A stretch of 55,094 nucleotides of DNA. Source: Thermoflexia bacterium. GTDB lineage: Bacteria > Chloroflexota > Anaerolineae > B4-G1 > SLSP01. Positions 9,412 to 53,606 of the stretch are shown piece by piece. The first letter of the stretch is position 1, and each line of letters begins with the position of its first letter. Under the pieces are notes generated by a model. It saw only the letters and a list, made by a program, of their open reading frames with translations, did not search any database and was not told the origin of the DNA. A program made the translations under genes and the position numbers. The stretch lies in NCBI GenBank assembly GCA_011192175.1, contig DUEJ01000012.1, positions 1-55,094 of the forward strand. Reading direction: 5' to 3'.

Positions 9412-9515
9412 GTATCATCTCAATATTTCGGGGGCTTGTAGCGCGGAATGGTATTCCGCCCGCCGGGTTGACAATCCGGGATACAACCGGCCCTAATTTT
9501 TTGAGATGATACCTA
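9412..9515 (+). repeat. Two-hairpin interspersed element, copy 1 (family D)
   Basis: 9433-9515 is 81/83 identical to the reverse complement of 14654-14736. A 12-bp inverted repeat GTATCATCTCAA (9412-9423) / TTGAGATGATAC (9501-9512) bounds it. Confidence 0.85.
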
Positions 9516-9623
9516 ATTTCTTTCTTAGCGCCTTTGTGGCAAAATTACTCTGTCTCGTGGTGAGTTATCTTTTTTCGCGATGAGCAAGTGTAATTTTCCC
9601 AGAATTTAAAGGGAGGTATGACA

Positions 9624-14471: not shown

Positions 14472-14653
14472 ACCTACTCTTTCTTACCTGTTGAAATTTG
14501 CTAGATTATAGCATATCATCTCAATAATCCGGGGTAATTTTTACCACAGAGAGACACGGAGGGCGCCGAATTTTTTATTTTTCTCCAGGTCTCTGTGGGG
14601 AGCATGACAGCTACCACAATGTTTCCCCTCCCATTTATTGAGAAGCTACATTA

Positions 14654-14736
14654 TAGGTATCATCTCAAAAAATTAGGGCCGGTTGTATCCCGGATTGTCA
14701 ATCCGGCGGGCGGAATATCATTCCGCGCTACAAGCC
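14654..14736 (-). repeat. Two-hairpin interspersed element, copy 2 (family D)
   Basis: It is the reverse complement of 9433-9515 with 2 mismatches. Confidence 0.85.
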
Positions 14737-14767
14737 ATTATAGCCTTGTTATGCTGAAAGAACAAAA

Positions 14768-14823
14768 GGAAGCGAGAAAACGAGGAAGCGAGGAGACGAA
14801 GAAGCGAGGAAGCGAGGAAGCGG
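14768..14823 (-). repeat. Octamer-period tandem repeat (family B), 7 units
   Basis: The plus strand reads GGAAGCGA GAAAACGA GGAAGCGA GGAGACGA AGAAGCGA GGAAGCGA GGAAGCGG. The CT-rich strand is the minus strand, matching the flanking genes. Confidence 0.85.
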
Positions 14824-18336: not shown

Positions 18337-18432
18337 AATTCCTCCTCTGAAAATAGACAGCTAGTCTTTGGTCTTGTAGTCGGATAGTCATTTTAGAGCT
18401 TTGTGAGGGTAGTTCGGACTCTTTGAGAATGT

Positions 18433-18500
18433 ACGAAAAAGCGAGAAAGCGAAAAAGCGAGAAAGCGAGAAGGCGAAAAGGCGAAAAGGCGAGAAGGAGA
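18433..18500 (-). repeat. Octamer-period tandem repeat (family B), about 8 units, inside the glmS leader
   Basis: The plus strand reads ACGAAAAA GCGAGAAA GCGAAAAA GCGAGAAA GCGAGAAG GCGAAAAG GCGAAAAG GCGAGAAG. This is CU-rich in the glmS mRNA sense. Confidence 0.85.
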
Positions 18501-18544
18501 GTGAACAATAAAGCGGGGGAGCGAGAGGCGAAGGAGTACCATTG

Positions 18545-18735
18545 CGGTTACTCCGCAGCTCTGGGGTCGCCCTGTCCAGGGTTTGGCTCACCAGTTACCC
18601 GGTGATTTTATGCCTTGACTTTATGGGGGGAGAAAATAGGGAAGGGTGTTTCCCTGACGGCATCCGCCGAAAATTCGATAAACCGTCACCTCGTTACCCA
18701 GAGAATTACAAACTGGGTCTGGCGCTCTTTCTCCG
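18545..18735 (-). ncRNA. glmS_ribozyme: glmS ribozyme (GlcN6P-dependent self-cleaving riboswitch)
   Basis: The minus strand reads AAAG-A/GCGCCAGACCCAG...CUGGGUAACGAGGUGACGGUUUAUCGAAUUUUCGGCGGAUGCC...CCAAACCCUGGACAGGGCGACC. This matches the conserved cleavage-site AGCGCC, the ACGAGG and AUCGAA..UUCGGCGGAUGCC core. It lies upstream of and in sense with glmS. Confidence 0.8.
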
Positions 18736-18778
18736 TGCTAGGCAGCTCACTTTACTATCTGCTCTGTTCTTCTAAAAA

Positions 18779-18900
18779 AACCTCCTCTGAAAATAAGTCT
18801 AAAGTCGCAAGTCAAAAGTCTGCTTCAAAACCAAGGCGTTGGCATTAGTGAAGCATTTCCGTTATCGTTGGTGTGCCAAAGATCAGAAGGACTCCTGAGC
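18779..18900. repeat. Interspersed element family E, copy 1 (4 NNAAGTC heptads)
   Basis: CCTCTGAAAATAAGTCTAAAGTCGCAAGTCAAAAGTCTGCTTCAAAACCAAGGCGTT... recurs at 47247-47375. The heptad block is at 18793-18820. Confidence 0.8.
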
Positions 18901-23610: not shown

Positions 23611-23675
23611 GGGCGACTGAAGTCGCGGCTACCATCGCGAAGTCCCCCTCCGGGGTCTAGTTGTCGCAGCGCGTT
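23611..23675. repeat. Interspersed element family C, copy 1
   Basis: GGCGACTGAAGTCGCGGCTAC..GCGAAGTCC..CGGGGTCTAGT aligns with 50636-50698. Confidence 0.7.
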
Positions 23676-27259: not shown

Positions 27260-27332
27260 GTTTGGTTTGGCTTAGTCTAGTAGTCCGATAGTCAGTGATC
27301 AGCGTCACTCTGAGCTGGATAACTATCCCGAC

Positions 27333-28139: not shown

Positions 28140-28268
28140 CTTTTTTCCTCAACTTTGGTTCCACTGAAAAAGTTAGTTCCAGCCACAAGTAAAAATCTGA
28201 TGGCTGCCAGACGTAGATTCCCGCAGGTAGTCACTGATTTATCATTTCTAATCTGCATTTATGATTTC

Positions 28269-28361
28269 ACTGAAAAAAGATAGCTCCCCGCAAAGACGCT
28301 AAGAAAAAATTAAGTTCTAAAATCTTCGCGCCTTCGTGGTGAAACACTTGGTTTTTTCAGT
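28269..28361. repeat. MITE-like interspersed element family A, copy A1
   Basis: ACTGAAAAAAGATAGCTCCCCGCAAAGACGCTAAG...AATCTTCGCGCCTTCGTGGTGAAACACTTGGTTTTTTCAGT. The terminal inverted repeats are ACTGAAAAAA and TTTTTTCAGT. Confidence 0.8.
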
Positions 28362-28365
28362 AGGC

Positions 28366-33350: not shown

Positions 33351-33493
33351 GACTCACCCTTGCCCATTCGCTTTCTCGCCTCCTCGCTTACTTGCTAATT
33401 TATTTTCCACTGGTCTGATATACTGCAGACTCACCCTTGCCCATTCGCTTTCTCGCCTCCTCGCTTACTCGCTTTCTCGCTTTCTCACTCGCC
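33351..33493 (+). repeat. Family B octamer repeats within a 42-nt direct duplication
   Basis: GACTCACCCTTGCCCATTCGCTTTCTCGCCTCCTCGCTTACT occurs at 33351-33392 and again at 33428-33469. The second copy continues as CGCT TTCTCGCT TTCTCACT CGCC. Confidence 0.85.
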
Positions 33494-33604: not shown

Positions 33605-34120
33605 ATGTCCAAACCTGTTGATATCCGCCGGATTACTCTTACATCTCTAATGTCCGCCTTGATCTTTGTCTTGACGCGCACGCAGTTGAGCGTTACGCCC
33701 ACGGGCGGCTATATCCACCTGGGCGACGCGGGGATCATCTTCGCCTCGCTGGCTTTTGGCCCCGGGGTGGGGCTGGTCGCCGGCGGCTTGGGAACGGCGC
33801 TGGCCGATATTACCAGCGGTTATGCGCAATGGGCTATCTTCTCACTGTTGGTGCATGGAGCGCAAGGTGGGGCGGTGGGGCAGCTCTTCGATGAGCAACG
33901 CAGGCTACTCTCCACCATCCTGGTCAGCGCCATTTCTATCGCGATCGTGGTGGGCGGATATTTCGTCGCCGGCACGATCTTAGAGGGCAGCGCCATCGCT
34001 CTTGGTTCGTTATTGCCCAATACCTTGCAGGCTCTGGGTGGTTCACTGCTGGGCATTCCGCTCTATTTTGCGGTGCAGCGCGCTTACCCCCCGCTGCGAC
34101 GTTATCATCAAGTTAGATAG
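33605..34120 (+). CDS. ECF transporter substrate-specific (S) component, substrate unknown
   Basis: 171 aa with about 5-6 TM. Its position immediately upstream of ecfA-ecfA'-ecfT genes supports the call. RBS AGGAGG lies upstream. Confidence 0.65.
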   Translation: MSKPVDIRRITLTSLMSALIFVLTRTQLSVTPTGGYIHLGDAGIIFASLAFGPGVGLVAGGLGTALADITSGYAQWAIFSLLVHGAQGGAVGQLFDEQRRLLSTILVSAISIAIVVGGYFVAGTILEGSAIALGSLLPNTLQALGGSLLGIPLYFAVQRAYPPLRRYHQVR

Positions 34121-36437: not shown

Positions 36438-36472
36438 GAATGGTGAATGGCAAATCAACAAATCGCAAATGG
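36438..36472. repeat. Solo CAAAT-type repeat block
   Basis: GAATGGTGAATGGCAAATCAACAAATCGCAAATGG has the same motif type as the blocks flanking the four-helix-bundle gene at 52583-52633 and 53081-53131. Confidence 0.6.
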
Positions 36473-36653: not shown

Positions 36654-36701
36654 CATCCTCCCTCGCTTTCTCGCCTTCTCGCTTCCTCGCTTTCTCGCCT
36701 T
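36654..36701 (+). repeat. Octamer-period tandem repeat (family B), 5-6 units
   Basis: CTCGCTTT CTCGCCTT CTCGCTTC CTCGCTTT CTCGCCTT, lying 56 nt upstream of the next start codon. Confidence 0.85.
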
Positions 36702-41536: not shown

Positions 41537-41591
41537 AGGTTAGTTTCTTACTCTTACCGGCAGAGCAGGCAGGGTCGGTCACTCTCGGTTA

Positions 41592-41650
41592 GCTCTGAAA
41601 TTTTTGCGCCTTCGCGGTAAAACTCTTGGTTTTTCAGTAGAGCCAAAGTT
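41592..41650. repeat. Family A element, right-half copy A5
   Basis: GCTCTGAAATTTTTGCGCCTTCGCGGTAAAACTCTTGGTTTTTCAGTAGAGCCAAAGTT. Confidence 0.7.
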
Positions 41651-43630: not shown

Positions 43631-43754
43631 CTGCAGAAAGATAGTTCTCCGCTAAGACGCTAAGACGCAAAGGGAAAAAATAACTATCTAAAAATTAGGT
43701 CTAAAATCTCCGCGCTCTCTGTGCCTGCGTGGTGAAATCTTGGTTTTTTTCAGT
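43631..43754. repeat. Family A element, copy A4
   Basis: CTGCAGAAAGATAGTTCTCCGCTAAGACGCTAAGACGCAAAG...CTCCGCGCTCTCTGTGCCTGCGTGGTGAAATCTTGGTTTTTTTCAGTA. Confidence 0.75.
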
Positions 43755-43779
43755 AAAATCGCTATTTCCTATCCTACTA

Positions 43780-43820
43780 CAAACCTCCGAGGTCTTTGAC
43801 CAACAGACCTCGGAGGTTTG
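43780..43820. terminator. Perfect 16-bp hairpin (contains the family F core AGACCTCGGAGGT)
   Basis: CAAACCTCCGAGGTCT-TTGACCAAC-AGACCTCGGAGGTTTG lies between the small membrane protein gene and uvrC. There is no strong U-tract on the minus strand. Confidence 0.45.
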
Positions 43821-43845
43821 AAAAAGTTACGAGCTTGTCTCGAGA

Positions 43846-44169
43846 TTAAATCAGGGTTAGCCAGTAACCGCTATTGAGACTTAGTTCATCCACTATCTTA
43901 TCGCCATTACTCCAAAAAAAGGCACCGCCGGCGCAGCAACAACAGAGGATCAGCAATATAGCTACTACAATCGCAATGATGAGGGTCTTATTGCTTTTGC
44001 CGTCTGAAACAGCCGTATTCGAAGGCATAGCGGAGTAAGTAGAGGCCGCAGAGGTTTCATTCGTGTAAGGCATTGCCTCCGGGGCCGGGGCATAAGTTGG
44101 CTCCGGGGTGGGAATCGGTTCCGGTTCCAGCATCGGGATTGGTTCGGGGTAAATGGGTTCCTGGTTCAT
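43846..44169 (-). CDS. Small single-pass membrane protein with a Pro-rich N-terminus and CCCC motif
   Basis: 107 aa. RBS AAAGGAG lies upstream. The TM segment is LIIAIVVAILLILCCCCAGGAFFW. No family was recognised. Confidence 0.55.
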   Translation of the reverse strand: MNQEPIYPEPIPMLEPEPIPTPEPTYAPAPEAMPYTNETSAASTYSAMPSNTAVSDGKSNKTLIIAIVVAILLILCCCCAGGAFFWSNGDKIVDELSLNSGYWLTLI

Positions 44170-44185
44170 TGTTTTCTCCTTTGCT

Positions 44186-44524
44186 CTATGAATAAAAATA
44201 AGTTGTTGGTGTAAAGGGGTTTTCCTTGTGCTTGTTCAAAATGAAATCAGCCACAGTAGCATGCACGTTTTCCGAGACACTACTCGCCCCAGAAGTGAAC
44301 ATTCCGGCCAGAGATAACAAGAAAGCCGCTCCACCTTGTTTTTTAACCATGTGCTGGCTGGCGATGTATTGTTCAAGAATTTCGTTAATGAGAACTTCCA
44401 CCTGTAGCTGTTGTTTCGTAGCAATAGAATCAATTTCTTGAGCAACCGCCTGATTGATACTGATGGGGAAAGAGCTCTCTATCTGTCCGATGTCTCTAGT
44501 GGTAACCACCAGTGATTTAAGCAT
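44186..44524 (-). CDS. Ribbon-helix-helix-like small protein (antitoxin/regulator-like)
   Basis: 112 aa. RBS GGAGG lies upstream. FPISINQAVAQEIDSIATKQQLQVEVLINEILEQYI fits a strand-helix-helix RHH pattern. It lies 16 nt upstream of the membrane protein gene. Confidence 0.45.
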   Translation of the reverse strand: MLKSLVVTTRDIGQIESSFPISINQAVAQEIDSIATKQQLQVEVLINEILEQYIASQHMVKKQGGAAFLLSLAGMFTSGASSVSENVHATVADFILNKHKENPFTPTTYFYS

Positions 44525-44844
44525 TTTTTCCTCCGTTCAAAAAGAGAGATTGATCCTTGACATCTCCATAGTAGCATACACTTGCTGAAATGCCAAATCA
44601 AACGAGTGTTAAAGATATGCCTTACTTCAATGATTATAACACAGCTAGTGGTGGCTGGCTATGGAAGACGCTAGAACCGGCAGGTCAATCGCATTTAGCC
44701 GCTTCTGGGGACGCTGTCCCTGAAAACACCCCGAAAATAGGCCCTCAGTGGGGCAAAATCTTCAGCCAAGCAGTGTTTCTGACCCTCAAAAGGGAGCTGG
44801 TTTTCCATATGCGATTGCCGCCCTGGGGGAGCTCCCTGTTTTGG

Positions 44845-44872
44845 TTGACAAAAAGGTCTGCTCTGGTACAAT
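44845..44872 (+). promoter_or_regulatory. Near-consensus promoter for tRNA-Glu
   Basis: TTGACA-16 nt-TACAAT, with the -10 element ending 16 nt before the tRNA 5' end. Confidence 0.6.
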
Positions 44873-44888
44873 ATCGCCGTGGTGACAA

Positions 44889-44961
44889 GACCCCATCGTC
44901 TAGTGGCCTAGGACGTCGGCCTCTCAAGCCGAAAACAGGGATTCGACTTCCCTTGGGGTCA
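44889..44961 (+). tRNA. tRNA-Glu (anticodon CUC), CCA not encoded
   Basis: GACCCCATCGTCTAGTGGCCTAGGACGTCGGCCTCTCAAGCCGAAAACAGGGATTCGACTTCCCTTGGGGTCA. It has a perfect 7-bp acceptor stem, anticodon loop CT-CTC-AA and T-arm AGGGA-TTCGACT-TCCCT. Confidence 0.9.
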
Positions 44962-44968
44962 CAAAAAA

Positions 44969-44999
44969 AGCCGAGGCTAAATCAGCCTCGGCTTTTTTA
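44969..44999 (+). terminator. Rho-independent terminator after tRNA-Glu
   Basis: AGCCGAGGCT-AAATC-AGCCTCGGCT followed by TTTTTT. Confidence 0.75.
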
Positions 45000-45027
45000 T
45001 TCTGCATTATCTTTTTTTCCATTGGTT

Positions 45028-45903
45028 ATGATGCCCAATCAAATCTATCAAAAATCCTCCGAATCTATGGACGAGCTGGCAGCCGGCAGCGTCGCGCTGA
45101 CCGTCACCTCTCCTCCTTACTGGAACGCCATTGACTACGATATTCACGCCGCCGATAGTTCTCGCCGTTACCGCACCCGCGCCTACGCGGAAGGCTACGT
45201 GGAGTACGAGGAGTATCTAGCCTGGATAGAGCGCGTTTTCGCGGAAGTGCTCCGCGTCACCAAACCTGGCGGACTCTGCGCCATCGTCATCGGGACGGTG
45301 CTCTTTGAAGGCGCGCTCTATCCAGTGCCCTTCGATATCACCGCACGGCTGACGCGCAGCGGGTGGGAGTTTCACCAGGATATTATCTGGCATAAATGCA
45401 CGGCTGGAGTGAAACGCGCCGGAGTCGCTATCCAACATCCCTATCCCGGCTACTACTATCCCAATATCATGAATGAGTACATCCTCCTTTTTCACAAGCC
45501 CGGTCCCAAAATCTATAAAAAACGCACGCGGGAGGAGAAGGAACCAGCTGCTTACCCGATCAACCGGCTCTTCACCATGGATGTGGCGAACAGCATCTGG
45601 CATATCGCGCCGGTGCCCCCCGCTATTTTGAACCATCCCTGCCCTTATCCAGAAGAGATTCCGCAGCGGTTAATTAGCCTTTATTCTTATCCCGGCGAAC
45701 TGGTGCTCGATCCTTTTGTGGGATCTGGGCAGACCACCAAGGTTGCCAAAGCGTTGGGACGGCAGTTCGCGGGCTACGATATCATCGCGGAATATGTGAC
45801 CTTGGCCCGCGAGCGCTTAGAGGAACCGCTCAATATTCGTCCCCAGCAACTGATCGTCACCTTTGAGAAGATCGCCGTGGACGCGCCGCTCAAAAATAAG
45901 TAA
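45028..45903 (+). CDS. DNA methyltransferase, beta-class (N4-cytosine or N6-adenine)
   Basis: Catalytic motif IV TSPPYWNAIDY lies near the N-terminus. The AdoMet motif I LDPFVGSGQTTKVA lies near the C-terminus, giving the beta-class order. The 44590 ORF start is rejected because it reads through the tRNA and terminator. Confidence 0.85.
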   Translation: MMPNQIYQKSSESMDELAAGSVALTVTSPPYWNAIDYDIHAADSSRRYRTRAYAEGYVEYEEYLAWIERVFAEVLRVTKPGGLCAIVIGTVLFEGALYPVPFDITARLTRSGWEFHQDIIWHKCTAGVKRAGVAIQHPYPGYYYPNIMNEYILLFHKPGPKIYKKRTREEKEPAAYPINRLFTMDVANSIWHIAPVPPAILNHPCPYPEEIPQRLISLYSYPGELVLDPFVGSGQTTKVAKALGRQFAGYDIIAEYVTLARERLEEPLNIRPQQLIVTFEKIAVDAPLKNK

Positions 45904-45926
45904 TTCCTGGGGCCAGTTATTGATTT

Positions 45927-46071
45927 TACTGAAAAAAGATTGTTCGCCGCTAAGGCACCAAGACGCTAAGCAGAAAATTTAGTATTAGGTTAAAAATATT
46001 TATTCATGCTGGTCAAAAGATTAATTTTCAAATCCTTGCGCCTTCGCGGTGAAATTCTTGGTTTTTCAGTA
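45927..46071. repeat. Family A element, full-length copy A2 (145 bp)
   Basis: TACTGAAAAAAGATTGTTCGCCGCTAAGGCACCAAGACGCTAAG...AATCCTTGCGCCTTCGCGGTGAAATTCTTGGTTTTTCAGTA, with inverted termini. Confidence 0.8.
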
Positions 46072-46160
46072 AAGCCGGTTGTTGTCAACATAGCCCGCAT
46101 AAATTTTTTCTCCGTGCCCTCTGTGTCCCTGCGGTGAACCATCTTTTTTCAGGAGAGCCG

Positions 46161-47177
46161 ATGTTAAATCGCCAACGGATTCTGACGCAATATCCCTGGT
46201 TACGTCCCAGCGCTGACGCGGTGGGCGTGGTGATGGGGGACGATTTGGATGCCGCGCTGACCACCGCGCTCTACCTGCACACGCATCCTAACGCGCGCTT
46301 GATTGGCATCTACCGGGGCTACGAGACGGTGCTCTACAGCGCCGCGAGCTGGGAGGAGGTGCTCCACGCCGTTTGGCTCGACCTGGACATCTACCATCCC
46401 GCCTGCCGCTCGCTGGGTCATCATATCCTGCGCCTCTCTCCGCAGGATCAGTTGCCCGGTCTGGCCCATAGCTGCAACCTCAACGAGCTGGCCGGTCGAT
46501 CAGTGCAGCAAAATTTCACCCAGAAGTATCCGCTAGGGACGATACATTTTCTGCTCTGGCTCTACCGGCTGGAGATACCGGAACTCCCCCACGCCGAACT
46601 GCTCATCTGGCTGGCGGATTCTTCCTACATCAACGGGCAAGCGGAGAGCTGGCACAAAAAACGGCCACGCGGTCAGAACCCACCACGGTGGGTTAAAGGC
46701 CCCGGTTTCCGGTGGAACGTGAAACGCTGGCTCTACACTCAAATCCCGCTCCAATCATTGCAAGCGAGCTTCCAGCGCATCGATACCCCGGATTTTGAGG
46801 AACAGATGGAGCGGTTCCAACAAAAAGTCATGGCCCCCGCCGGCTTTCAGCAAGGGAATGGACAGGTCGCTTCTCGGCGGCGCAAACTCTCTGGCTACCA
46901 GTGCCAACCTGCCAAAGACGCAGATATCCGAGCATACATTTACCGGCTCCTGCGCTTTAGCTGCACCCAGACGGGTTGGCAAGTACGTCTCTCGCAACTC
47001 GCCCCGTTTGAAACGCCGCGGCAACTCTCCGGAGAGAGAAAGATCATGCATGTCACAGCCATCCCAGAGCAAGACCTGGCCCGCCTCTTGCGGCAGCGCC
47101 AGGCCTTCTCCTACGTTTTTCAGAGCCGGCGGTATTTGAACTACACTACCGAGATCGCCCCAGCGCCGCCGCGCTAG
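46161..47177 (+). CDS. Hypothetical 338-aa protein next to the methyltransferase
   Basis: ATG 46161 is preceded by AGGAGAG. No family was recognised. Clustered acidic/His residues (GDDLDAAL, WLDLDIYH, LGHHIL) are the only notable motifs. Confidence 0.55.
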   Translation: MLNRQRILTQYPWLRPSADAVGVVMGDDLDAALTTALYLHTHPNARLIGIYRGYETVLYSAASWEEVLHAVWLDLDIYHPACRSLGHHILRLSPQDQLPGLAHSCNLNELAGRSVQQNFTQKYPLGTIHFLLWLYRLEIPELPHAELLIWLADSSYINGQAESWHKKRPRGQNPPRWVKGPGFRWNVKRWLYTQIPLQSLQASFQRIDTPDFEEQMERFQQKVMAPAGFQQGNGQVASRRRKLSGYQCQPAKDADIRAYIYRLLRFSCTQTGWQVRLSQLAPFETPRQLSGERKIMHVTAIPEQDLARLLRQRQAFSYVFQSRRYLNYTTEIAPAPPR

Positions 47178-47246
47178 CCCAGCTCTCTGTTTGCGTAAAC
47201 ATGATGTAAGTCATGGGATATCGTGGGTTCAGTTGCCATAGCTGTT

Positions 47247-47375
47247 TCTCCTCTGAAAATAAGTCTAAAGTCACAAGTCTAAAGTCGCAAGTCTAAAGTC
47301 CGCTTCAAAACCAAGGCGTTAGTGCAGCACTTTCGTGGTTGTGGGGGGGCTAAAGGCAGATGGGGACTCCTGCCC
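47247..47375. repeat. Interspersed element family E, copy 2 (6 NNAAGTC heptads)
   Basis: It aligns with 18779-18900. The heptad block 47259-47300 has 6 units versus 4 in copy 1. Confidence 0.8.
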
Positions 47376-47714
47376 TCACCGCCGAGGCAGGAAGGTATCC
47401 GCCAGCAGCGAGAAGGGCACCGGCATCAGACAACCCCGCCTCAAGCCAGAGATAGCTCGCACGACCAAGAGCTGCCCGAAGTTCCAGGTCAAACCGTAGC
47501 TGGCCGCCCAAAGTCCCCAAAGCCCCGTGCCAGAGATGATAACCTGTTTGCGGGAGAATTTATCGGCCGCATATCTCCAGAAGGGGGAACTCGGTGCTTG
47601 TAACACGTTACGAATCGTGCCGCTCATGCCTAAATCAATCGCGAATTGCAATACGGTAGCCGTAGCTTCAGTCGCCAGGCGCGCCCATAACGCGGAATGA
47701 CCAGCGGTCGCGAC
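47376..47714 (-). pseudogene. Truncated MFS transporter gene fragment (N-terminal ~110 codons only)
   Basis: The open frame has no ATG. It contains the MFS loop 2-3 motif YAADKFSRKQVIISG and the TM4-type motif VVRAISGL...FSLLADTFLPRR. The frame stops exactly at the border of repeat E2. Confidence 0.5.
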
Positions 47715-47756
47715 TTACGCCTTGCAAATTGCCGTTACTTGGAGGAGAATAGAAAG

Positions 47757-48392
47757 ATGAATGCACAACCAAGACCTTCTCTGCAAACTGAACGCGCGCT
47801 CTGGCAGGCGGGGTATCGCCACGTGGCGGGGCTGGACGAGGCGGGACGCGGGGCGTGGGCTGGCCCGGTCTACGCGGCGGCCGTGATCTTTCCGCAATTT
47901 AAGGCGGTGCCGGAGCTGCTGGCGGGAGTACGGGATTCTAAACTACTCTCCGCCCGGCAGCGGGAAGCGCAATTTGAGCGCATCGTAGCTACGGCGTGGG
48001 CCTATGGTGTAGGGTGTGCGACCGCCGAGGAGATAGATCAGCGGGGTATCGTCCCTAGCACCAAACTGGCGATGCGCCGCGCGCTGGCCCACTTGGAGCC
48101 GGCGGCGCAAGCCTTGATTATTGATGTGTTGCAGCTGCCAGCGGTGTTGCTCCCCCAGCGGAGCTTTCCCCGCGCCGACGCGTTGAGTCTGACGGTGGCG
48201 GCAGCCAGCATCTTAGCCAAAGTGAGCCGTGACCGCTGGATGGCGACCGAGGCCGCGACGCGGTTTCCTGGCTATGGGTTCGCCCAACACAAGGGCTATG
48301 GAACCGCGCAGCATCGCACTGCCCTGGATAAACTGGGAGTGACGACGATACATCGGCGCACCTTTCGCCCCATCGCGGCGCGGCTGCTTTAG
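47757..48392 (+). CDS. rnhB: Ribonuclease HII
   Basis: VAGLDEAGRGAWAGPVYAAAV (the DEAGRG catalytic motif), DSKLLS and GYGFAQHKGYGT are present. The start is set at ATG 47757, after GGAGGAG. Confidence 0.9.
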   Translation: MNAQPRPSLQTERALWQAGYRHVAGLDEAGRGAWAGPVYAAAVIFPQFKAVPELLAGVRDSKLLSARQREAQFERIVATAWAYGVGCATAEEIDQRGIVPSTKLAMRRALAHLEPAAQALIIDVLQLPAVLLPQRSFPRADALSLTVAAASILAKVSRDRWMATEAATRFPGYGFAQHKGYGTAQHRTALDKLGVTTIHRRTFRPIAARLL

Positions 48393-48431
48393 CCGCAAGA
48401 TAACTATTACCCAGCCTCTAGTTACACATTC

Positions 48432-48549
48432 ATGGGGGTGCGTTTCAAATGAGTTGCGAGTTGCGAACTGTGTCCGTGTTGCGTAAAGCTTCTCCAAACG
48501 GAACACGCAATCCGCAACGAGAAATTCAACCAAAATGAAACGCACCCAT
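48432..48549. repeat. Long imperfect hairpin / palindromic element
   Basis: The outer arms are ATGGGGGTGCGTTTCA (48432-48447) and TGAAACGCACCCAT (48536-48549). The inner arms are AGTTGCGAGTTGCG and CGCAATCCGCAACG. Confidence 0.6.
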
Positions 48550-48613
48550 TTCATTTTGTCTTAGCAACCATTGAGGAGAAGATATGGAATTCCACCAGGC
48601 GGAGGAGGAGTAG

Positions 48614-50332
48614 ATGAGTCAACTATTTTGGCAAGCAGCGCAAGATTTCCGGGCTGCTCGCCGGGCGGCGGACGTGGAACACGTCCTGGCCCGCCTCTCC
48701 GGCAGATCCAACGAATTACTCTCTTATGAGGAGGTCCGGAAAAAACTACACGCTACAGCTATCCATCCCCAGGGGGTACGTGATATTCCGCTGGATGCGA
48801 TTATTGGCAGCGAGGGACGCTACACTGATTTCACCCGCACCTTTTTGCCGAAGCAGGAGAGTGATATGGAACGCTGGACTAGAGTTAATCTGGCCGTCCA
48901 GCGACCTGCCGGGTTAGGGCCCATTGAGGTCTACCAGATCGGCGAAGCCTATTTTGTGCGTGATGGTAATCACCGCGTCTCTGTGGCGCGGCAGCTGGGC
49001 GCGACGTACATCCAAGCCTATGTGAATGCAGTGGAGACGTCAGTTTCGCTGACTCCCGATACCGGTATGGCCGAGTTGATCCTCAAAGCGGAGTATGCGG
49101 ATTTTCTGAAAAGTACCGGGGTCGCAGAGTGGTTACCTGACGTTAATTTTGAATTGACGATACCGGGTCACTACTGGAAATTAGAAGAGCACATTGACGT
49201 ACATCGTTACTTCATGGGAATGAACGCAGAGCGCGAGATATCGCCGGCAGAGGCCATCAGTCACTGGTATGAGACGGTTTATCTGCCGGTGGTGCGGGTC
49301 ATCCGCGAGCGTGGTTTATTGCGGGATTTCCCGACCCGTACTGAAACCGACCTCTATCTCTGGTTGCTGGAACACCGCGCTGAGTTAACTCAAACGTTAG
49401 GTTGGGAAGTGGCAACGGAGGAAGCGGCCTCGCACCTGACCGCCGAATATAGCCCCCATTCCCGGCGCTTAGCCGCCCGGATAGGCGAGCATATCCGGGC
49501 GGTGTTGACTCCAGATACTTTGTCTGCCGGCCCGCCCGTCGGCAGTTGGCGCGCAGAGCAGGGGCAAGTGGGAAGCGAGCTGGCTCTCTTCCCACGGATA
49601 TTGGTGCCCTTCCAGGACAATCAAGCCGGTTGGCAGGCGGTGGAACAGGCGTTGAGCTGGGCCGCCCGCGAAGCTGGTCAAATTAGGGGGTTGCACATCA
49701 CCGCAGCAGGAGAGCCGGCAGCAGCAGGGCTTAAAGAACAATTTGCGCGTCGCTGTCAGGAAGCCGAGGTATTGGGTCAATTGAGCATCACGTCGGGCGA
49801 CGTGACCCAGCTAATCTATGACCGTTCCCGGTGGGTAGACCTGGTGGTAATTAGTCTCACTCATCCGCCGGAACCGCAACCCCTCGCGCGATGGAACTCG
49901 GGCTTCCGCTCTCTGATTTCCCGCTGTCCACGCCCGGTGCTGGCCGTGCCCGGTCCAGCGCGCCCCCTCCGGAGAGCGCTCTTGGCCTACGACGGCAGTC
50001 CCAAAGCGCGGGAAGCCCTCTTTGTGGCGGCGTATCTGGCCGGTCGCTGGAATATCTCGCTGGCGGTGCTGACCGTTATGGACCCGGGGCCAGAGATGGC
50101 GGAGATATTAGCCGACGCGCAACGCTACCTAGCCGCGCAGGATTGCTGCGCGGCCTATCACAATGCCAGCGGCCCGGTGGCGGAGACGATTCTCCGAACC
50201 GCAGCATCGCTGGATAGCGATCTGCTTATCATGGGAGGGTATAGTCTTACGCCCTGGCTGGAAATCGTCATGGGGAGTACGGTTGATCAAGTCTCACGGG
50301 AGAGTGACCGCCCCCTCCTGCTCTGCCGGTAA
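48614..50332 (+). CDS. Multidomain protein: ParB/Srx-like N-terminal domain, central conserved domain, two universal stress protein (USP) domains
   Basis: The ParB-like nuclease-fold motif is VRDGNHRVSVARQLG. The C-terminus has two USP-like halves (ILVPFQDNQAG... and ALLAYDGSPKAREAL...DLLIMGGY...GSTVDQVSRESDRPLLLC). Confidence 0.65.
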   Translation: MSQLFWQAAQDFRAARRAADVEHVLARLSGRSNELLSYEEVRKKLHATAIHPQGVRDIPLDAIIGSEGRYTDFTRTFLPKQESDMERWTRVNLAVQRPAGLGPIEVYQIGEAYFVRDGNHRVSVARQLGATYIQAYVNAVETSVSLTPDTGMAELILKAEYADFLKSTGVAEWLPDVNFELTIPGHYWKLEEHIDVHRYFMGMNAEREISPAEAISHWYETVYLPVVRVIRERGLLRDFPTRTETDLYLWLLEHRAELTQTLGWEVATEEAASHLTAEYSPHSRRLAARIGEHIRAVLTPDTLSAGPPVGSWRAEQGQVGSELALFPRILVPFQDNQAGWQAVEQALSWAAREAGQIRGLHITAAGEPAAAGLKEQFARRCQEAEVLGQLSITSGDVTQLIYDRSRWVDLVVISLTHPPEPQPLARWNSGFRSLISRCPRPVLAVPGPARPLRRALLAYDGSPKAREALFVAAYLAGRWNISLAVLTVMDPGPEMAEILADAQRYLAAQDCCAAYHNASGPVAETILRTAASLDSDLLIMGGYSLTPWLEIVMGSTVDQVSRESDRPLLLCR

Positions 50333-50439
50333 GAGTAAGGAATTAAACCTTGGTTAGGGTCATCAAGTTTTCGCAAAATTGCAGCAGTTATGTTTAGCGT
50401 GTTCACGTACCCTCACAAAATGAAAAATGGTTAAACCAC

Positions 50440-50580
50440 TAACCGCATTGACTACCGCGTTCATAACGCGCAAAGCCCCAGTGCGTGGTCAATTCTGCGT
50501 TCAATGCTTGCTCCAACGCCACTTTTACGCCTGGCAAGGCCCCGGCTCGCAACTACGCCGCCAGCGACTCATCCAATTCC
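50440..50580 (-). pseudogene. Remnant of an IS256/Mutator-family transposase N-terminal region
   Basis: The minus-strand translation is ELDESLAA*LRAGALPGVKVALEQALNAELTTHWGFARYERGSQ. The ...EAELTxHLGxxxYER pattern is characteristic of Transposase_mut. It is interrupted by an in-frame stop and has no continuation. Confidence 0.45.
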
Positions 50581-50591
50581 GTCTGAAAACT

Positions 50592-50741
50592 GCTAGTGTT
50601 CTGTCAGCCCTGATTTGAGTGGTTGCCAATTAGCCTGGCGACTAAAGTCGCGGCTACGGTGGCGCAGTCCACCTACGGGGACTAGTGAGCAGTCGGCGTA
50701 TGGTAATCAACTGATCATTTTACACTTGACAGAACACTAGC
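50592..50741. mobile_element. 150-bp MITE-like element with perfect 15-bp terminal inverted repeats
   Basis: The termini are GCTAGTGTTCTGTCA (50592-50606) and TGACAGAACACTAGC (50727-50741). The interior carries the family C core (50636-50698). Confidence 0.6.
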
Positions 50742-50808
50742 TCATTTTAGGGTTGGTCTTAACTATGCCCCTTTTTGCGAAATTTGAAAAACACTAACTA
50801 ACTTGTAA

Positions 50809-52569
50809 CTACTCTATTGCCCGCTCTTGGATGGCTTGCTGGGCGTGGGCGATGAACTCCTCCACCGTGATAGCGCCCAGCTGCTTACCGCTGCGCAGCC
50901 GGACGGCGACGGTGCCTTCCTCAGCCTCGCGGTCGCCGACTACCAACATGTAAGGAATTTTATCATTAACTTTGGCCTGGCGGATTTTGGCGCCCATGCG
51001 AGAAGAAGAAGCGTCCGTTTTGGCGCGGACGTGGGCTTGGCGCAGTTGCTCCTCCACCTGGCGCGCATACTCGATATGCCGGTCGGCGATGGGAATGAGG
51101 CGGGCCTGCTCCGGCGCGAGCCAGACGGGGAATGCGCCGCCGTAATGTTCCACCAGAATACCGAAGAACCGCTCCAGCGATCCCAGCAGGGCGCGATGCA
51201 CCATGTAGGGCCGGTGCGCGTGTCCATCCTCGCCGGCGAAGGTCATATCGAAGCGCTCCGGCAAGTTAAAGTCAAACTGGATTGTCGTCAGCTGCCAGTA
51301 ACGGCCCAGGGCGTCCTTGACTTTCAGGTCGATCTTGGGGCCGTAGAACGCGCCGCCGCCCTCATCCAGCTCGTAGGCGATTCCTTCGGCTTGGATAGCT
51401 CGAAGCAACGAGGCCTGCGCCTGTTCCCAGCGGGCCGGCTCGCCGACCGCTTTCTCCGGGCGCGTGGCTAAGTAGGCTTGGATATCTTCAAAGCCGAAGG
51501 CGCGCAACAAGGATAGAGAGAACTTCAGGACGCGCAATATCTCGTCTTCAATTTGATCGGGTGTGCAGAAGATGTGGGCATCATCTTGCGTGAAGCCGCG
51601 CACACGCAGCAGCCCGTGGAGCACGCCGCTTTTTTCGTAGCGGTAGACCGTGCCGAGTTCGGCCCACCGGAGCGGTAGATCGCGGTAGGAGCGCAAACTG
51701 GATTTGTAGATCAGGATATGGAAGGGGCAGTTCATCGGTTTGAGGTAGTAATCCTGGCCGTCCACGTCCATCGGAGCGTACATGCCCTCGCGGTAGAAAT
51801 CCAAGTGCCCGGAGGTCTCCCAGAGCCAGGCTTTGCCGATGTGCGGCGTGTAGACGAAGTCGTAGCCGCCCTCGATGTGCCGGTCACGCCAGAAGTCCTC
51901 GACGGTTTTGCGCATCAGCGCGCCTTTGGGATGCCAGTAGGCCATTCCCGGCCCGGCCTCCTCGTGGAAGGATATCAGATCCATCTGCGTGATTATTTTG
52001 CGGTGATCGCGCTTCTTCACCTCTTTCAGCCAGTGGAGATGTTTCCGCAACTCTTTAGGCGATTCCCAGGCCGTGCCGTAGATGCGCTGGAGCATCGGGC
52101 GTTTCTCATCGCCGCGCCAGTAAGCCCCGGCCACACTCATCAGCTTGACCGCCTGGGGGCTGATCTCCCGCGAGTTTTCCACGTGCGGCCCGCGACAGAG
52201 ATCGACGAAAGCGCCGCTCCGGTAGATGGAAAACGTGGTCTCCGGGTCAGTGACTAAGAGATCGGCGATCAACTCCAATTTGTAGGGTTGAGCGGCGAAG
52301 AGCTCTTGTGCCGCCGCGGCATCGAGTTCCTCGCGGACGAAAGATTGCTTCTCCCTAATCAACTCTCGCATCCGGTCTTCAATCTCGGCCAGGTCATCCT
52401 CGGTGAGGGAACGCGGCAGCTCGAAATCGTAGTAGAAGCCGTTTTCGATGGGCGGGCCGATGGCAACCTTCCCTTCTGGGAACTTCTCCAACACGGCCTC
52501 CGCCATAATGTGGGCCGCCGAGTGACGCACTTTGTACAGGTGACTCTCGTGATACTCTGGTGAATTCAT
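50809..52569 (-). CDS. thrS: Threonine--tRNA ligase (no N-terminal TGS domain)
   Basis: The editing-domain motif RHSAAHIMAEAV appears at residue ~15. Class II core motifs and the anticodon-binding domain are present. The start is set at ATG 52569 after AGGAGGAG, giving 586 aa. Confidence 0.9.
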   Translation of the reverse strand: MNSPEYHESHLYKVRHSAAHIMAEAVLEKFPEGKVAIGPPIENGFYYDFELPRSLTEDDLAEIEDRMRELIREKQSFVREELDAAAAQELFAAQPYKLELIADLLVTDPETTFSIYRSGAFVDLCRGPHVENSREISPQAVKLMSVAGAYWRGDEKRPMLQRIYGTAWESPKELRKHLHWLKEVKKRDHRKIITQMDLISFHEEAGPGMAYWHPKGALMRKTVEDFWRDRHIEGGYDFVYTPHIGKAWLWETSGHLDFYREGMYAPMDVDGQDYYLKPMNCPFHILIYKSSLRSYRDLPLRWAELGTVYRYEKSGVLHGLLRVRGFTQDDAHIFCTPDQIEDEILRVLKFSLSLLRAFGFEDIQAYLATRPEKAVGEPARWEQAQASLLRAIQAEGIAYELDEGGGAFYGPKIDLKVKDALGRYWQLTTIQFDFNLPERFDMTFAGEDGHAHRPYMVHRALLGSLERFFGILVEHYGGAFPVWLAPEQARLIPIADRHIEYARQVEEQLRQAHVRAKTDASSSRMGAKIRQAKVNDKIPYMLVVGDREAEEGTVAVRLRSGKQLGAITVEEFIAHAQQAIQERAIE

Positions 52570-52582
52570 GATCTCCTCCTTA

Positions 52583-52633
52583 CAAATTAACAAAACAACA
52601 AATCGACAAATGGCAAATGGCAAATGGCAAAAA
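52583..52633. repeat. CAAAT-repeat block flanking the four-helix-bundle gene (thrS-proximal side)
   Basis: CAAATTAACAAAACAACAAATCGACAAATGGCAAATGGCAAATGGCAAAAA is complementary in motif to 53081-53131. Confidence 0.8.
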
Positions 52634-53056
52634 TCAGCGATGGTATTTCTTCATACGGTTGGCTTCAGTGATCAGCAAGGGGATGATCTCATTGAGCAAG
52701 CCCCAACGATGTTGTAGAATCTCTGGAGAAAGCAATGTTTTGCTGCGATAGTACCACCCTTTGCTTTCACGGGCTGAACCCAGTGCAATGCGCAGAAAGT
52801 GAGCACGAGCTTTACCAAACCCGCGTCCATAACCTTCTTCGATATTGGCAGAGATGGAACCGGCGCTGCGTATCAACTGCTGGGCAACGGTACGCCCCAA
52901 GGGATGTGGCAGTAGTTTCTCACAATCTCGCCAGCAAATATCGTAGAAGAACAGAGACTTACGATAACCGAAAAATTTCCAGAGATCCTCCGCTGCTATC
53001 TCCGGTGGCATTTCCTGCAACCAATCCTCGTAATTTTTCCAGCCTTCATCTTCCAT
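52634..53056 (-). CDS. Four-helix-bundle protein (23S rRNA intervening-sequence protein family)
   Basis: QLIRSAGSISANIEEGYGRGFGKARAHFLRIALGSARESKGWYY is the signature of the four-helix-bundle / 23S_rRNA_IVP family. The start is set at ATG 53056 after GGGAGGAAG. Confidence 0.8.
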   Translation of the reverse strand: MEDEGWKNYEDWLQEMPPEIAAEDLWKFFGYRKSLFFYDICWRDCEKLLPHPLGRTVAQQLIRSAGSISANIEEGYGRGFGKARAHFLRIALGSARESKGWYYRSKTLLSPEILQHRWGLLNEIIPLLITEANRMKKYHR

Positions 53057-53080
53057 AAATTGCTTCCTCCCTCTCAGCAT

Positions 53081-53131
53081 CTGTTAATCTGTTGATTTGC
53101 TGATTTGCATATTTGCTGATTTGTCCATTTC
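53081..53131. repeat. ATTTG-repeat block flanking the four-helix-bundle gene (leader-proximal side)
   Basis: CTGTTAATCTGTTGATTTGCTGATTTGCATATTTGCTGATTTGTCCATTTC. Confidence 0.8.
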
Positions 53132-53390
53132 ACAAAAAAACGCCCCGCATCCTCTTGGGACGTGGGGCGCACGTGGTTCCACCCAAGTTCCCCGCAAATT
53201 AACGTGGGGCACTCGAAAGGCTTTAACGGACCTATCCGGGTATCTATACTGGTTAACAACGTTCCAGATACCGCTCACGAGGGGTTTTCTCCGGGTTCTG
53301 CTGAAGCAGGCTCTCAATCGGTGGCCCGCTCTCCCTGTCACTTTCCACCGGGCACTCGTCTCGCTCAACGCGTTGGCAAAATCAACTATC
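53131..53390 (-). promoter_or_regulatory. T-box leader (tRNA-sensing riboswitch) with intrinsic terminator
   Basis: The minus strand carries the T-box sequence CUUGGGUGGAACCACGUG (53170-53187). It is followed directly by the terminator GCGCCCCAC...GCGGGGCG plus U7 (53134-53170). Upstream stem-I-like elements are GGUGGAAAG and GGGAGAG, and a candidate specifier is ACC (Thr) in GGGCC-ACC-GA. Confidence 0.7.
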
Positions 53391-53393
53391 AAA

Positions 53394-53422
53394 ATTATAG
53401 TCTTAGTTGACGTGGTTGTCAA
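53394..53422 (-). promoter_or_regulatory. Consensus sigma-70 promoter of the T-box leader
   Basis: The minus strand reads TTGACA-17 nt-TATAAT, an exact consensus. Confidence 0.65.
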
Positions 53423-53497
53423 GAGGTCTCATTGTGATAAAGTATCTACTCAATCCCTAGTTTCACAGAGAGAGAAGAGAGAAAACAAACTTTGGTC

Positions 53498-53606
53498 TAC
53501 TGAAAAACTAAGTATTTAACCACGAAGGCGCAAAGGCGCGAAGATTTGGGAACTTAAATTTTTTCTTAGCGACTTAGCGTCTTTGCGGGGAGCTCCCTTT
53601 GTTCAG
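53498..53606. repeat. Family A element, inverted copy A3
   Basis: TACTGAAAAACTAAGTATTTAACCACGAAGGCGCAAAGGCGCGAAGATTT...CTTAGCGACTTAGCGTCTTTGCGGGGAGCTCCCTTTGTTCAG is the reverse orientation of A1/A2. Confidence 0.75.

Follow-up and report, generated by a model that had tools for sequence, protein, structure and literature searches.

Inverted tandem arrays bracket a four-helix-bundle gene between a T-box leader and thrS in a Thermoflexia bacterium: one copy of a recurrent, intervening-sequence-like cassette

Introduction

Why should a T-box leader be followed not by thrS but by a small gene of the 23S rRNA intervening sequence (IVS) protein family, and why should that gene lie between two complementary blocks of short repeats? 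The question is raised by a 55,094-nt stretch of DNA from a Thermoflexia bacterium (Chloroflexota, Anaerolineae; contig DUEJ01000012.1 of assembly GCA_011192175.1, positions 1 to 55,094), hereafter the window, in which all features are read on the minus strand unless marked (+). The gene encodes a 140-aa four-helix-bundle (FHB) protein that belongs to PF05635 and TIGR02436; PF05635 is a large family first seen in rRNA IVSs. Along the minus strand, a consensus promoter is followed by the T-box leader with its terminator, a (GCAAAT+2 nt)n array, a Shine-Dalgarno sequence (SD), the FHB gene, an (ATTTGC+1-2 nt)n array, a further SD, and thrS (Table 1). The initial annotation of the window interpreted this arrangement as an IVS-like cassette whose flanking repeats could pair and loop out the gene. 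Comparison with other loci demonstrates that the cassette is one copy of a widespread module composed of a purine-rich array of 7-8-nt units, an SD, an FHB gene, and the reverse-complementary, pyrimidine-rich array. That such cassettes constitute a class, and that this one was inserted at the thrS site, can be stated with high confidence. The favored interpretation, which is reasonably probable, is that of an IVS-like hitch-hiking cassette situated between the T-box terminator and the thrS ribosome-binding site, with arms able to loop out the open reading frame (ORF) in the transcript.

Recurrence and covariation of the arms

The decisive support for the bracket is comparative. A survey of FHB genes for flanking repeats, which the initial annotation had suggested, was performed as a genome scan with one genome per species and yielded 80 loci (designated here by numbers preceded by L), almost all from metagenome-assembled genomes (MAGs) of Chloroflexota. 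At nearly all of these ~80 loci, the gene is preceded by a 7-8-nt tandem array and followed by the reverse complement of that array, and an array occupies the position homologous to the upstream arm of the window in more than 70 loci. The nearest FHB homologues on long contigs (65-70% identity) are found in sugar-metabolism operons (uxa/gnd/pfk), either before gnd or between gnd and pfk, and each of them is preceded by a (GCAAAT+n) array and followed by an (ATTTGC+n) array. The units on the two sides of the gene covary by lineage (GCAAAT/ATTTGC, GCGAAT/ATTCGC, GCAAGT/ACTTGC, GCAAGA or GCAGGA with TCTTGC or TCCTGC, CATGAAT/ATTCATG, GCTAGT/ACTAGC, GGCGAGT/ACTCGCC, TTGAAGGG/CCCTTCAA, and GTTACAG/CTGTAAC), and it is this recurrence of covarying units around homologous genes that argues against a chance origin of the bracket. 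The arms vary in copy number and are not alignable column by column.

Quantitative comparisons across loci point in the same direction. The mean duplex energy of cognate arms was -68.4 kcal/mol, compared with -48.6 kcal/mol for non-cognate arms (Wilcoxon p=2.6e-10), and the arms exceeded the 99% level of a composition-preserving null in the inverted orientation at 49 of 82 loci, versus 8 in the direct-orientation control. These results establish the complementary flanks, which the initial annotation described from a single example, as a conserved and covarying feature of the cassette. Arrays with 6-9-nt units cover 29% of the sequence within +/-150 nt of FHB genes versus 1.35% elsewhere in the loci, a 22-fold enrichment.

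The same architecture is present in a second phylum. On cyanobacterial plasmids (hosts Nostoc, Geminocystis, Calothrix, Stanieria, Picosynechococcus, and Anabaena), inverted heptamers bracket 6-7 of 10 genes annotated as 'four helix bundle / S23 ribosomal protein', with units that include GGGAACA/TGTTCCC, AAGGGAA/TTCCCTT, GGGTGTA/TACACCC, GGCAGAA/TTCTGCC, and GGTGACA/TGTCACC. In five of these (L094, L096, L097, L100, and L103), classical heptamer arrays are inverted around the FHB gene with the polarity seen in Chloroflexota. The comparisons thereby extend the initial annotation in two respects: the arms consist of 7-8-nt units in tandem, with different units in different lineages, and the architecture is general, occurring in Chloroflexota and cyanobacteria in dozens of operon contexts, rather than being peculiar to a riboswitch leader.

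The thrS site with and without the cassette

Orthologous T-boxes precede thrS in L008, L009, L044, and L088-L093, allowing the site to be compared among relatives. Between terminator and thrS, a GCAAAT-type cassette is present in the window, in L008 (FHB 91% identical to that of the window), in L009 (thrS 77% and FHB 66% identical), and in L044 (FHB frameshifted). The cassette is missing from L088 (thrS 86% identical), which shares the divergent YacP-family neighbor with the window. The two leaders match almost completely as far as the U-tract of the terminator, and the match resumes ~15 nt ahead of the SD; the intervening stretch measures ~50 nt in L088 and ~540 nt in the window. In L090, L092, and L093 (thrS 79%, 74%, and 69% identical, respectively), the T-box directly precedes thrS. 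Two further relatives contain array hairpins without an ORF at this site, a feature not anticipated by the initial annotation: a ~500-nt hairpin in L089 (thrS 82%; positions 1975-2480), composed of ~37 GGTAGTCY units, a ~65-nt loop, and ~18 GACTACNN units, and a small GAGAAAT/ATTTCTC hairpin in L091 (thrS 76%). GGTAGTC-like units are also found in the window at ~18360-18395 and 27275-27300.

This pattern of presence and absence indicates that the cassette is not a constant component of the thrS operon: it is an indel polymorphism, and array hairpins occur repeatedly at its site. The comparison with L088 agrees with the description of the cassette as an insertion, and the opposing possibility considered in the initial annotation, an ordinary conserved gene found without repeats in all relatives, is contradicted by its absence from L088, L090, L092, and L093.

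The leader itself is as originally described. A complete T-box extends from a promoter that matches the consensus at every position to a terminator with a stem and U-tract, the terminator sequence is almost unchanged in L088, and the thrS start is common to L008 and L088. A Thr codon, ACC, lies within GAAAACCCC at most 1 nt from the aligned specifier position and is a candidate specifier; L088 has ACC followed by A. The FHB gene occupies the interval between T-box and thrS with an SD of its own, as read from the sequence and supported by profile matches, and the thrS ATG is located 64 nt past the FHB stop codon. The GC content of the FHB ORF is ~47-50%, compared with ~60% for thrS. The initial annotation noted that a thrS promoter within 52570-52640 would undermine the proposal; no consensus-like minus-strand site was found inside the cassette, a weak negative that leaves thrS probably still dependent on the T-box promoter. 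For the same reason, transcription of the cassette most likely starts at the T-box promoter, which would place it, like thrS, under the control of uncharged tRNA-Thr.

The arms in the window

On both sides of the ORF, the intergenic sequence consists of head-to-tail 7-8-nt units, present in 3.6-3.9 copies according to Tandem Repeats Finder (TRF). The upstream block reads GGACAAAUCAGCAAAUAUGCAAAUCAGCAAAUCAACAG (53126-53089), within an array that begins right after the terminator U-tract, and the downstream array ends 2 nt short of the thrS SD. The motif CAAATNNNCAAAT occurs six times in the window (0.08 expected), with four of the six occurrences inside the two blocks, and nowhere else in the 55 kb do two arrays within 1.5 kb of each other form a genuine inverted pair. 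When the whole 581-nt stretch was folded, positions 53110-53084 paired with 52607-52582 at probabilities of 0.8-0.99 over ~24 nt, and the thrS SD was unpaired. The hand-made pairing of the initial annotation (13 of 14 positions) holds if one G-U pair is counted, as it is composed of 12 Watson-Crick pairs, one G-U pair, and one mismatch.

Table 1. Positions of the cassette, the thrS leader, and related repeats in the window
Feature	Position	Strand	Remarks
Sigma-70-type promoter, TTGACA-17-TATAAT	53394..53422	(-)	12/12 consensus matches; drives leader; kept in L008 and L088
T-box leader RF00230, full length	53153..53377	(-)	cmscan 98.1 bits (gathering 93); model positions 1-219
T-box intrinsic terminator	53134..53170	(-)	Stem 53169-53141, then U7; inverted repeat I14, 12-nt arms, 5-nt loop
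Upstream (5') arm, purine-rich tandem array (GCAAAT+2 nt), ~4-5 units	53084..53128	(-)	TRF period 8, 3.9 copies
SD GGAGG of FHB gene	53066..53070	(-)	9 nt ahead of ATG; read from sequence
FHB gene (23S rRNA IVS protein / Avd-like), 140 aa	52634..53056	(-)	PF05635 E=3.7e-14; TIGR02436 E=2.1e-16
Downstream (3') arm, pyrimidine-rich tandem array (ATTTGC+1-2 nt), ~6 units	52582..52631	(-)	TRF periods 7 and 8; inverted repeats I1/I2/I5 with 5' arm
thrS, including SD AGGAGG (52580-52575); ATG at 52569	50809..52580	(-)	TIGR00418 721 bits
Solo GCAAAT-type array	36446..36470	(+)	Directly after stop of CbiQ-family gene; upstream-arm orientation
MITE-like repeat copies	53490-53600, 28240-28365, 41590-41650, 43671-43770, 45904-46095		Copy at 53490-53600 directly upstream of T-box promoter

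The encoded protein

The assignment of the gene to the 23S rRNA IVS protein family, and its kinship with the accessory protein Avd of diversity-generating retroelements (DGRs), are confirmed by profile and structure comparisons. Both profile scores exceed the curated cut-offs (PF05635, 53.3 bits versus 33.8; TIGR02436, 60.1 bits versus 24), and an AlphaFold2 model built from a 27-sequence alignment (predicted local distance difference test score, pLDDT, 91.3) consists of short N-terminal helices followed by four long helices. The best Foldseek matches in the PDB are 2RLD and 2GSC (target-normalized TM-score 0.81-0.89), entries with five chains each, followed by Avd from the DGR of a Bordetella phage (4DWL, 0.77; also 8UBE). 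The subfamily is moderately basic, with an isoelectric point (pI) of ~9, and nucleic-acid binding is a reasonable expectation by analogy with Avd. More than 1,500 relatives were retrieved, the nearest mostly from Anaerolineae-type contigs, and the 47 invariant columns among 27 homologues indicate that the protein is under purifying selection.

Searches with profiles, PADLOC, and PHROGs revealed no recognized nuclease or recombinase motif in the FHB protein, and the latter two gave no match and thus no defense or phage label. A scan of viral contigs recovered no family member, and tblastn of the protein against the window recovered no second copy. The initial annotation had found no reverse transcriptase (RT) nearby, and a Pfam scan agrees, with none among the 10 large ORFs at 33.6-54.7 kb (within ~20 kb of the FHB gene; small ORFs not all covered); gene calls around the homologous loci that were looked up likewise contained no RT. 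No template/variable repeat pair appeared in the stretch searched for repeats, 52500-53250.

Genomic contexts, relocation, and decay

The cassettes occupy more than 30 distinct operon contexts, usually co-directional with their neighbors and with gaps of 40-110 nt; the upstream array usually starts at or just past the preceding stop codon, and the downstream array ends just ahead of the SD of the next gene. Some contexts recur, including the Lar_N/gnd/pfk operon (~14 loci), thrS (four loci), and the position upstream of a gene read from sequence as gmd (four loci). At seven Chloroflexota loci (L040, L042, L046, L051, L057, L063, and L073), the cassette lies between putative cas6-like and cas1 genes, both labels having been read from the sequences only. 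On two cyanobacterial plasmids, FHB genes lie between annotated cas genes (cas10/cmr3 in L101 of Picosynechococcus; cas6/cas4 in L103 of Anabaena 90). In the CRISPR (clustered regularly interspaced short palindromic repeats) survey of Altae-Tran et al., a figure on proteins linked to CRISPR lists '23S rRNA IVP' among its abbreviations (PMC10910872). Hitch-hiking of FHB genes in cas operons may partly underlie this reported link, without implying a function in CRISPR systems.

FHB clades largely track context, with 68-78% identity within a context and 53-64% between contexts. Three pairs of FHB genes are 88-89% identical and have the same arm unit in unrelated contexts (L009/L011, L042/L075, and L051/L079), indicating that gene and arms can move as a unit. 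No recombinase or transposase was linked to the cassettes in the contexts examined.

Degraded forms are also found: the cassette behaves as an element that moves occasionally and whose decay leaves pseudogenes, hairpins without an ORF, and solo arrays. The FHB gene is frameshifted between intact arms in L020 (1160-1690) and L044, arms surround only ~110-120 nt without an ORF in L004 (2240-2485) and L007 (2250-2460), and adjacent inverted arrays without any gene occur in 14 cases. Among arrays located more than 200 nt from an FHB gene, 18% share its arm unit, compared with 3.6% for the arms of other loci (odds ratio 6, p=4e-10). The solo CAAAT block noted in the initial annotation does exist (Table 1); it is possibly a scar or a gene-less arm, an idea that fits the decay series with ORF-less arms in L004 and L007.

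An unrelated insert of ~260 nt interrupts the cassette of L008 (2560-2980), the closest relative, and is flanked on each side by a copy of the 5' arm, the SD, and the start of the FHB gene (~75 nt), showing that the cassette can itself be a target for further insertions. Elsewhere in the window, a (CUUUCUCG)n array is located at 18434-18501 (-), between a glmS ribozyme (18737..18564) and the glmS ORF (start 18336). The same pyrimidine-rich unit occurs in the sense orientation ahead of two ORFs, one at 33605 (array 33445-33486) and one at 36758 (array 36662-36698), as well as at 14767-14822; such arrays could represent 3'-type arms on their own or the scars that other cassettes have left.

Interpretation and competing explanations

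If the cassette acts as an IVS-like hitch-hiker, uncharged tRNA-Thr would lead to read-through transcription of the first arm, the FHB gene, the second arm, and thrS, and the FHB protein would be translated from its own SD. Once transcribed, the 3' arm would zip onto the 5' arm in any of several registers, giving a long, imperfect stem that would loop out the ~480-nt ORF segment and leave the thrS SD exposed at its foot. By analogy with the Coxiella IVS, such a stem would be a plausible substrate for a double-strand-specific (RNase III-type) ribonuclease or a stabilizing structure. Whether by drawing the flanking sequences close to each other, by offering a site for processing or stabilization, or by both, the stem would allow the host transcript to tolerate the insertion. 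The chances that the RNA stem forms in vivo are judged to be about even, and its processing by RNase III, which is argued from the same analogy, is possible though somewhat doubtful.

Polarity is an indication of a constraint that acts on the transcript or is coupled to transcription. In all 49 loci with clear arms, which have unrelated units and represent both phyla, the 5' arm is the purine-rich one (mean 0.67; binomial p=3.6e-15, a value to be read with the phylogenetic non-independence of the loci in mind), and the same polarity on the operon strand is seen in 13 of 14 ORF-less hairpins. Since a DNA palindrome has no polarity, this fixed arrangement suggests that the arms are constrained in relation to the direction in which they are transcribed.

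Several observations weigh against the favored interpretation. The arms in the window are comparatively degenerate, and taken by itself the window gives marginal evidence for pairing: the two blocks form a duplex of -28.3 kcal/mol versus -22.9 +/- 3.9 kcal/mol for dinucleotide shuffles (~1.4 standard deviations, p ~0.10), and the symmetric local alignment score of 38 compares with 27 and 39.8 at the 95% and 99% levels of a composition-preserving null. The pairing energy relative to shuffled sequences, a check proposed in the initial annotation, is therefore borderline in the window, and it is the cross-locus comparison that supports complementarity; cross-locus controls were adopted because dinucleotide shuffles retain the complementary composition of the blocks. 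When each 5' arm was aligned to the reverse complement of its 3' arm with a symmetric score, mismatches of the G-U type (144) were as frequent as those of the A-C type (142; by locus, 21 versus 29). Functional RNA stems normally tolerate G-U far better than A-C, and the equal counts thus give no sign of selection specific to pairing of the sense RNA; arm complementarity may instead be maintained by a strand-symmetric process at the DNA level. The comparison of sense and antisense energies is only marginal (44 versus 27 loci, p=0.04), and ribosomes on the FHB ORF would compete with a long-range stem spanning 480 nt. Where one MAG holds several FHB copies, their identity is no more than 53-72% and their units differ; recent spread within genomes is not apparent, and most cassettes look like old residents inherited vertically. 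When the filled site of the window was aligned with the empty site of L088, which may be a deletion remnant, no obvious target-site duplication was seen. Recent transposition within genomes was considered as a separate candidate and is ruled out by the low identity of copies in one MAG. On the reading preferred here, orientation and placement are constrained at the transcript level, and arm-to-arm identity may be renewed largely by concerted evolution of the DNA (slippage and inter-arm templating).

Concerted evolution is also central to an explanation confined to DNA, in which the arms would be terminal inverted repeats, would form cruciforms or hairpins that serve as substrates, or would supply the homology for recombination or gene conversion by which the cassette is moved or copied. 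Complementarity would then result from slippage and intramolecular templating, and RNA pairing would be an irrelevant by-product. Strand-symmetric complementarity, the joint relocation of gene and arms, the sharing of arm units among neighboring spacers (including the L004 unit ATTTGCCC in two adjacent spacers), and an array copy number as variable as slippage would produce (L007, L026, and L089) are all in keeping with such an element, whereas the uniform polarity of cassettes and ORF-less hairpins and the almost invariable co-direction of cassettes with their host operons are not properties of a palindrome. Together with the lack of an associated recombinase or transposase, of a visible target-site duplication, and of recent intragenomic copies, this makes an exclusively DNA-level element unlikely. 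Alternatively, each 7-8-nt unit could bind one protein, either an FHB oligomer or a single-strand binder such as S1 or a Csp-like protein, that controls the translation or stability of the FHB or downstream gene; in a stronger form, each FHB paralogue would be a caretaker that maintains its own family of array hairpins, in the manner of RAYTs and REPINs (described below). The nucleic-acid binding of the related Avd in the DGR ribonucleoprotein, the fold matches to 4DWL and 8UBE, and the pI of ~9 lend this idea some appeal, as do the different units of FHB copies in one MAG, the dispersed arrays that share units with local FHB arms, the solo pyrimidine-rich arrays upstream of start codons in the window, and the binding partner and translational role postulated for heptamers of Nostoc and Beggiatoaceae (10.1101/2022.06.06.494920; PMC4679880). 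Nevertheless, 82% of nearby arrays differ in unit from the local FHB arms, the FHB protein has no recognized nuclease or recombinase motif, and protein binding alone leaves unexplained why the arms are reverse complements in a fixed polarity, so that this alternative appears quite improbable.

The least probable alternative, scarcely credible given the comparative data, is that CAAAT/ATTTG blocks by chance flank an ordinary small gene of the thrS operon in a repeat-rich genome. The window does contain many intergenic 7-8-nt arrays and MITE-like repeats, its own pairing statistics are marginal, and the order T-box, FHB, thrS is kept in L008, L009, and L044. Coincidence with genome-wide simple repeats is nonetheless ruled out by the covarying bracket at ~80 loci in more than 30 contexts, the enrichment of arrays beside FHB genes, the status of the bracket as the sole inverted array pair in the window, and the locus null test, and close relatives lack the gene at the thrS site.

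Beyond the IVS-like cassette itself, a broader conjecture may be offered, at low confidence: FHB genes and short heptamer/octamer arrays could be one genetic system, in at least Chloroflexota and Cyanobacteria, in which each paralogue travels with its own unit and recognizes or maintains it. Orphan arrays and hairpins, including the classical short tandemly repeated repetitive (STRR)/heptamer repeats, would then be its arms, scars, or dependants, as REPINs are to RAYTs. The fixed purine-5'/pyrimidine-3' polarity suggests that such a system would act at the transcript level, partitioning or stabilizing operon mRNAs, including those under riboswitch control.

Other features of the window

Several further repeats and rearrangements were observed around thrS and elsewhere in the window. 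A repeat of ~100 nt resembling a miniature inverted-repeat transposable element (MITE) (CTACTGAAAAA...CCACGAAGGCGCAA...CTTAGCG, with CGCTAAGA octamers) has at least five intergenic copies (Table 1). Another ~100-nt repeat (…GGGATACAACCGGCCCTAATTTTTTGAGATGATA…) is present in inverted orientation at the intergenic sites 9420-9520 and 14640-14745 and looks like a second MITE-like family. Two copies (18775-18860 and 47245-47320) were found of an element with (AAGTCTA/AAGTCGC)n heptamers and the conserved flanks CCTCTGAAAATAAGTC ... GCTTCAAAACCAAGGCGTT. Downstream of thrS, an inverted repeat (CTAGTGTTCTGTCA...TGACAGAACACTAG, 50600-50740) encloses a conserved motif (GGCGACTAAAGTCGCGGCTAC...) that also occurs at 23613-23665. 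In L088, uvrC directly follows thrS, whereas in the window the two are separated by ~7 kb (43671-50808) that hold an N6/N4 DNA methylase, a tRNA, RNase HII, a Usp-domain protein, and several repeats; this extra sequence suggests a second, larger insertion or rearrangement beside thrS.

Comparison with known systems

RAYT genes (REP-associated tyrosine transposases, where REP denotes repetitive extragenic palindromic sequences) form a small family flanked by their own inverted repeats, with REP/REPIN hairpins within operons and several gene/repeat families per genome. They are IS200-like tyrosine transposases with clear catalytic motifs. The cassettes resemble this system in having hairpin-forming intergenic repeats in operons, a gene family inside its own inverted repeats, and several gene/repeat families side by side in one genome, but the FHB protein has no known catalytic function and the arms are microsatellite-like tandem arrays instead of a fixed palindrome. 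At the thrS site, Condon, Putzer, and Grunberg-Manago reportedly found in 1996 that the B. subtilis thrS message is stabilized by an endonucleolytic cut between the T-box and thrS. Functional processing at the same position thus has a precedent, although the cleavage there reportedly lies upstream of the terminator and is made by a single-strand endonuclease, with no inserted gene. The likeness to DGR Avd proteins extends to the four-helix-bundle fold (4DWL, TM-score 0.77; 8UBE), the Pfam family, and a moderately basic character; in contrast to them, the cassette has no RT among the scanned ORFs and is found in housekeeping operons, with no member in the viral contigs scanned.

The closest parallel is with the IVSs of rRNA. 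The Coxiella burnetii IVS is a 428-nt element with an S23p ORF in its loop and a 28-bp terminal stem that is cleaved by RNase III (PMC4990558). Like the IVSs of Leptospira and Coxiella, the cassette is an element of ~430-560 nt with an ORF of the PF05635 family in the loop and complementary termini forming a long stem, and in both cases distribution among relatives is patchy, the GC content is below that of the host, and decay is seen. The differences concern location, since the cassette lies in an mRNA leader or operon spacer instead of helix 9, 25, or 45 of rRNA (Rfam detected no rRNA in the window), and the arms, which are 7-8-nt tandem arrays pairable in many registers and not unique inverted repeats. 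The cassette ORF also has a good SD and is strongly conserved, whereas S23p is apparently not made in Coxiella, as suggested by the results of the authors who studied it. Cleavage by RNase III is known for Coxiella, and excision of the cassette would follow only by analogy.

The arms themselves recall the STRR/TAACTGA-type heptamers of cyanobacteria, which are tandem 7-nt repeats (7-8 nt here), intergenic, near start codons, and lineage-specific in their units (PMC4679880; 10.1101/2022.06.06.494920). Such heptamers in cyanobacteria and Beggiatoa have been described as intergenic direct repeats without an explanation (PMC4679880), and a binding partner has been postulated (10.1101/2022.06.06.494920). 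The literature searched treats them as direct arrays without a link to FHB genes, whereas here they form inverted pairs of fixed polarity around a specific gene family. The cassettes suggest one concrete way to account for the heptamer and octamer repeats found between genes in cyanobacteria, Chloroflexota, and other filamentous bacteria.

The 23S_rRNA_IVP family was still regarded as functionally uncharacterized in 2024 (PMC11270868), and its occurrence in mRNA spacers inside a stereotyped, covarying, and polar bracket gives the family a defined and testable genetic unit. For genome annotation, recurrent insertion of such units parts riboswitches (here a T-box) and operon genes from their targets, apparently without disabling them. 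A literature search, with most subscription journals outside its scope, retrieved no account of FHB genes that lie in mRNA spacers between inverted tandem arrays with covarying units and fixed polarity. ORF-bearing rRNA IVSs, Avd proteins in DGRs, and heptamer repeats are already known individually, and what seems to be new is an IVS-type element that resides in mRNA and has tandem arrays as its arms.

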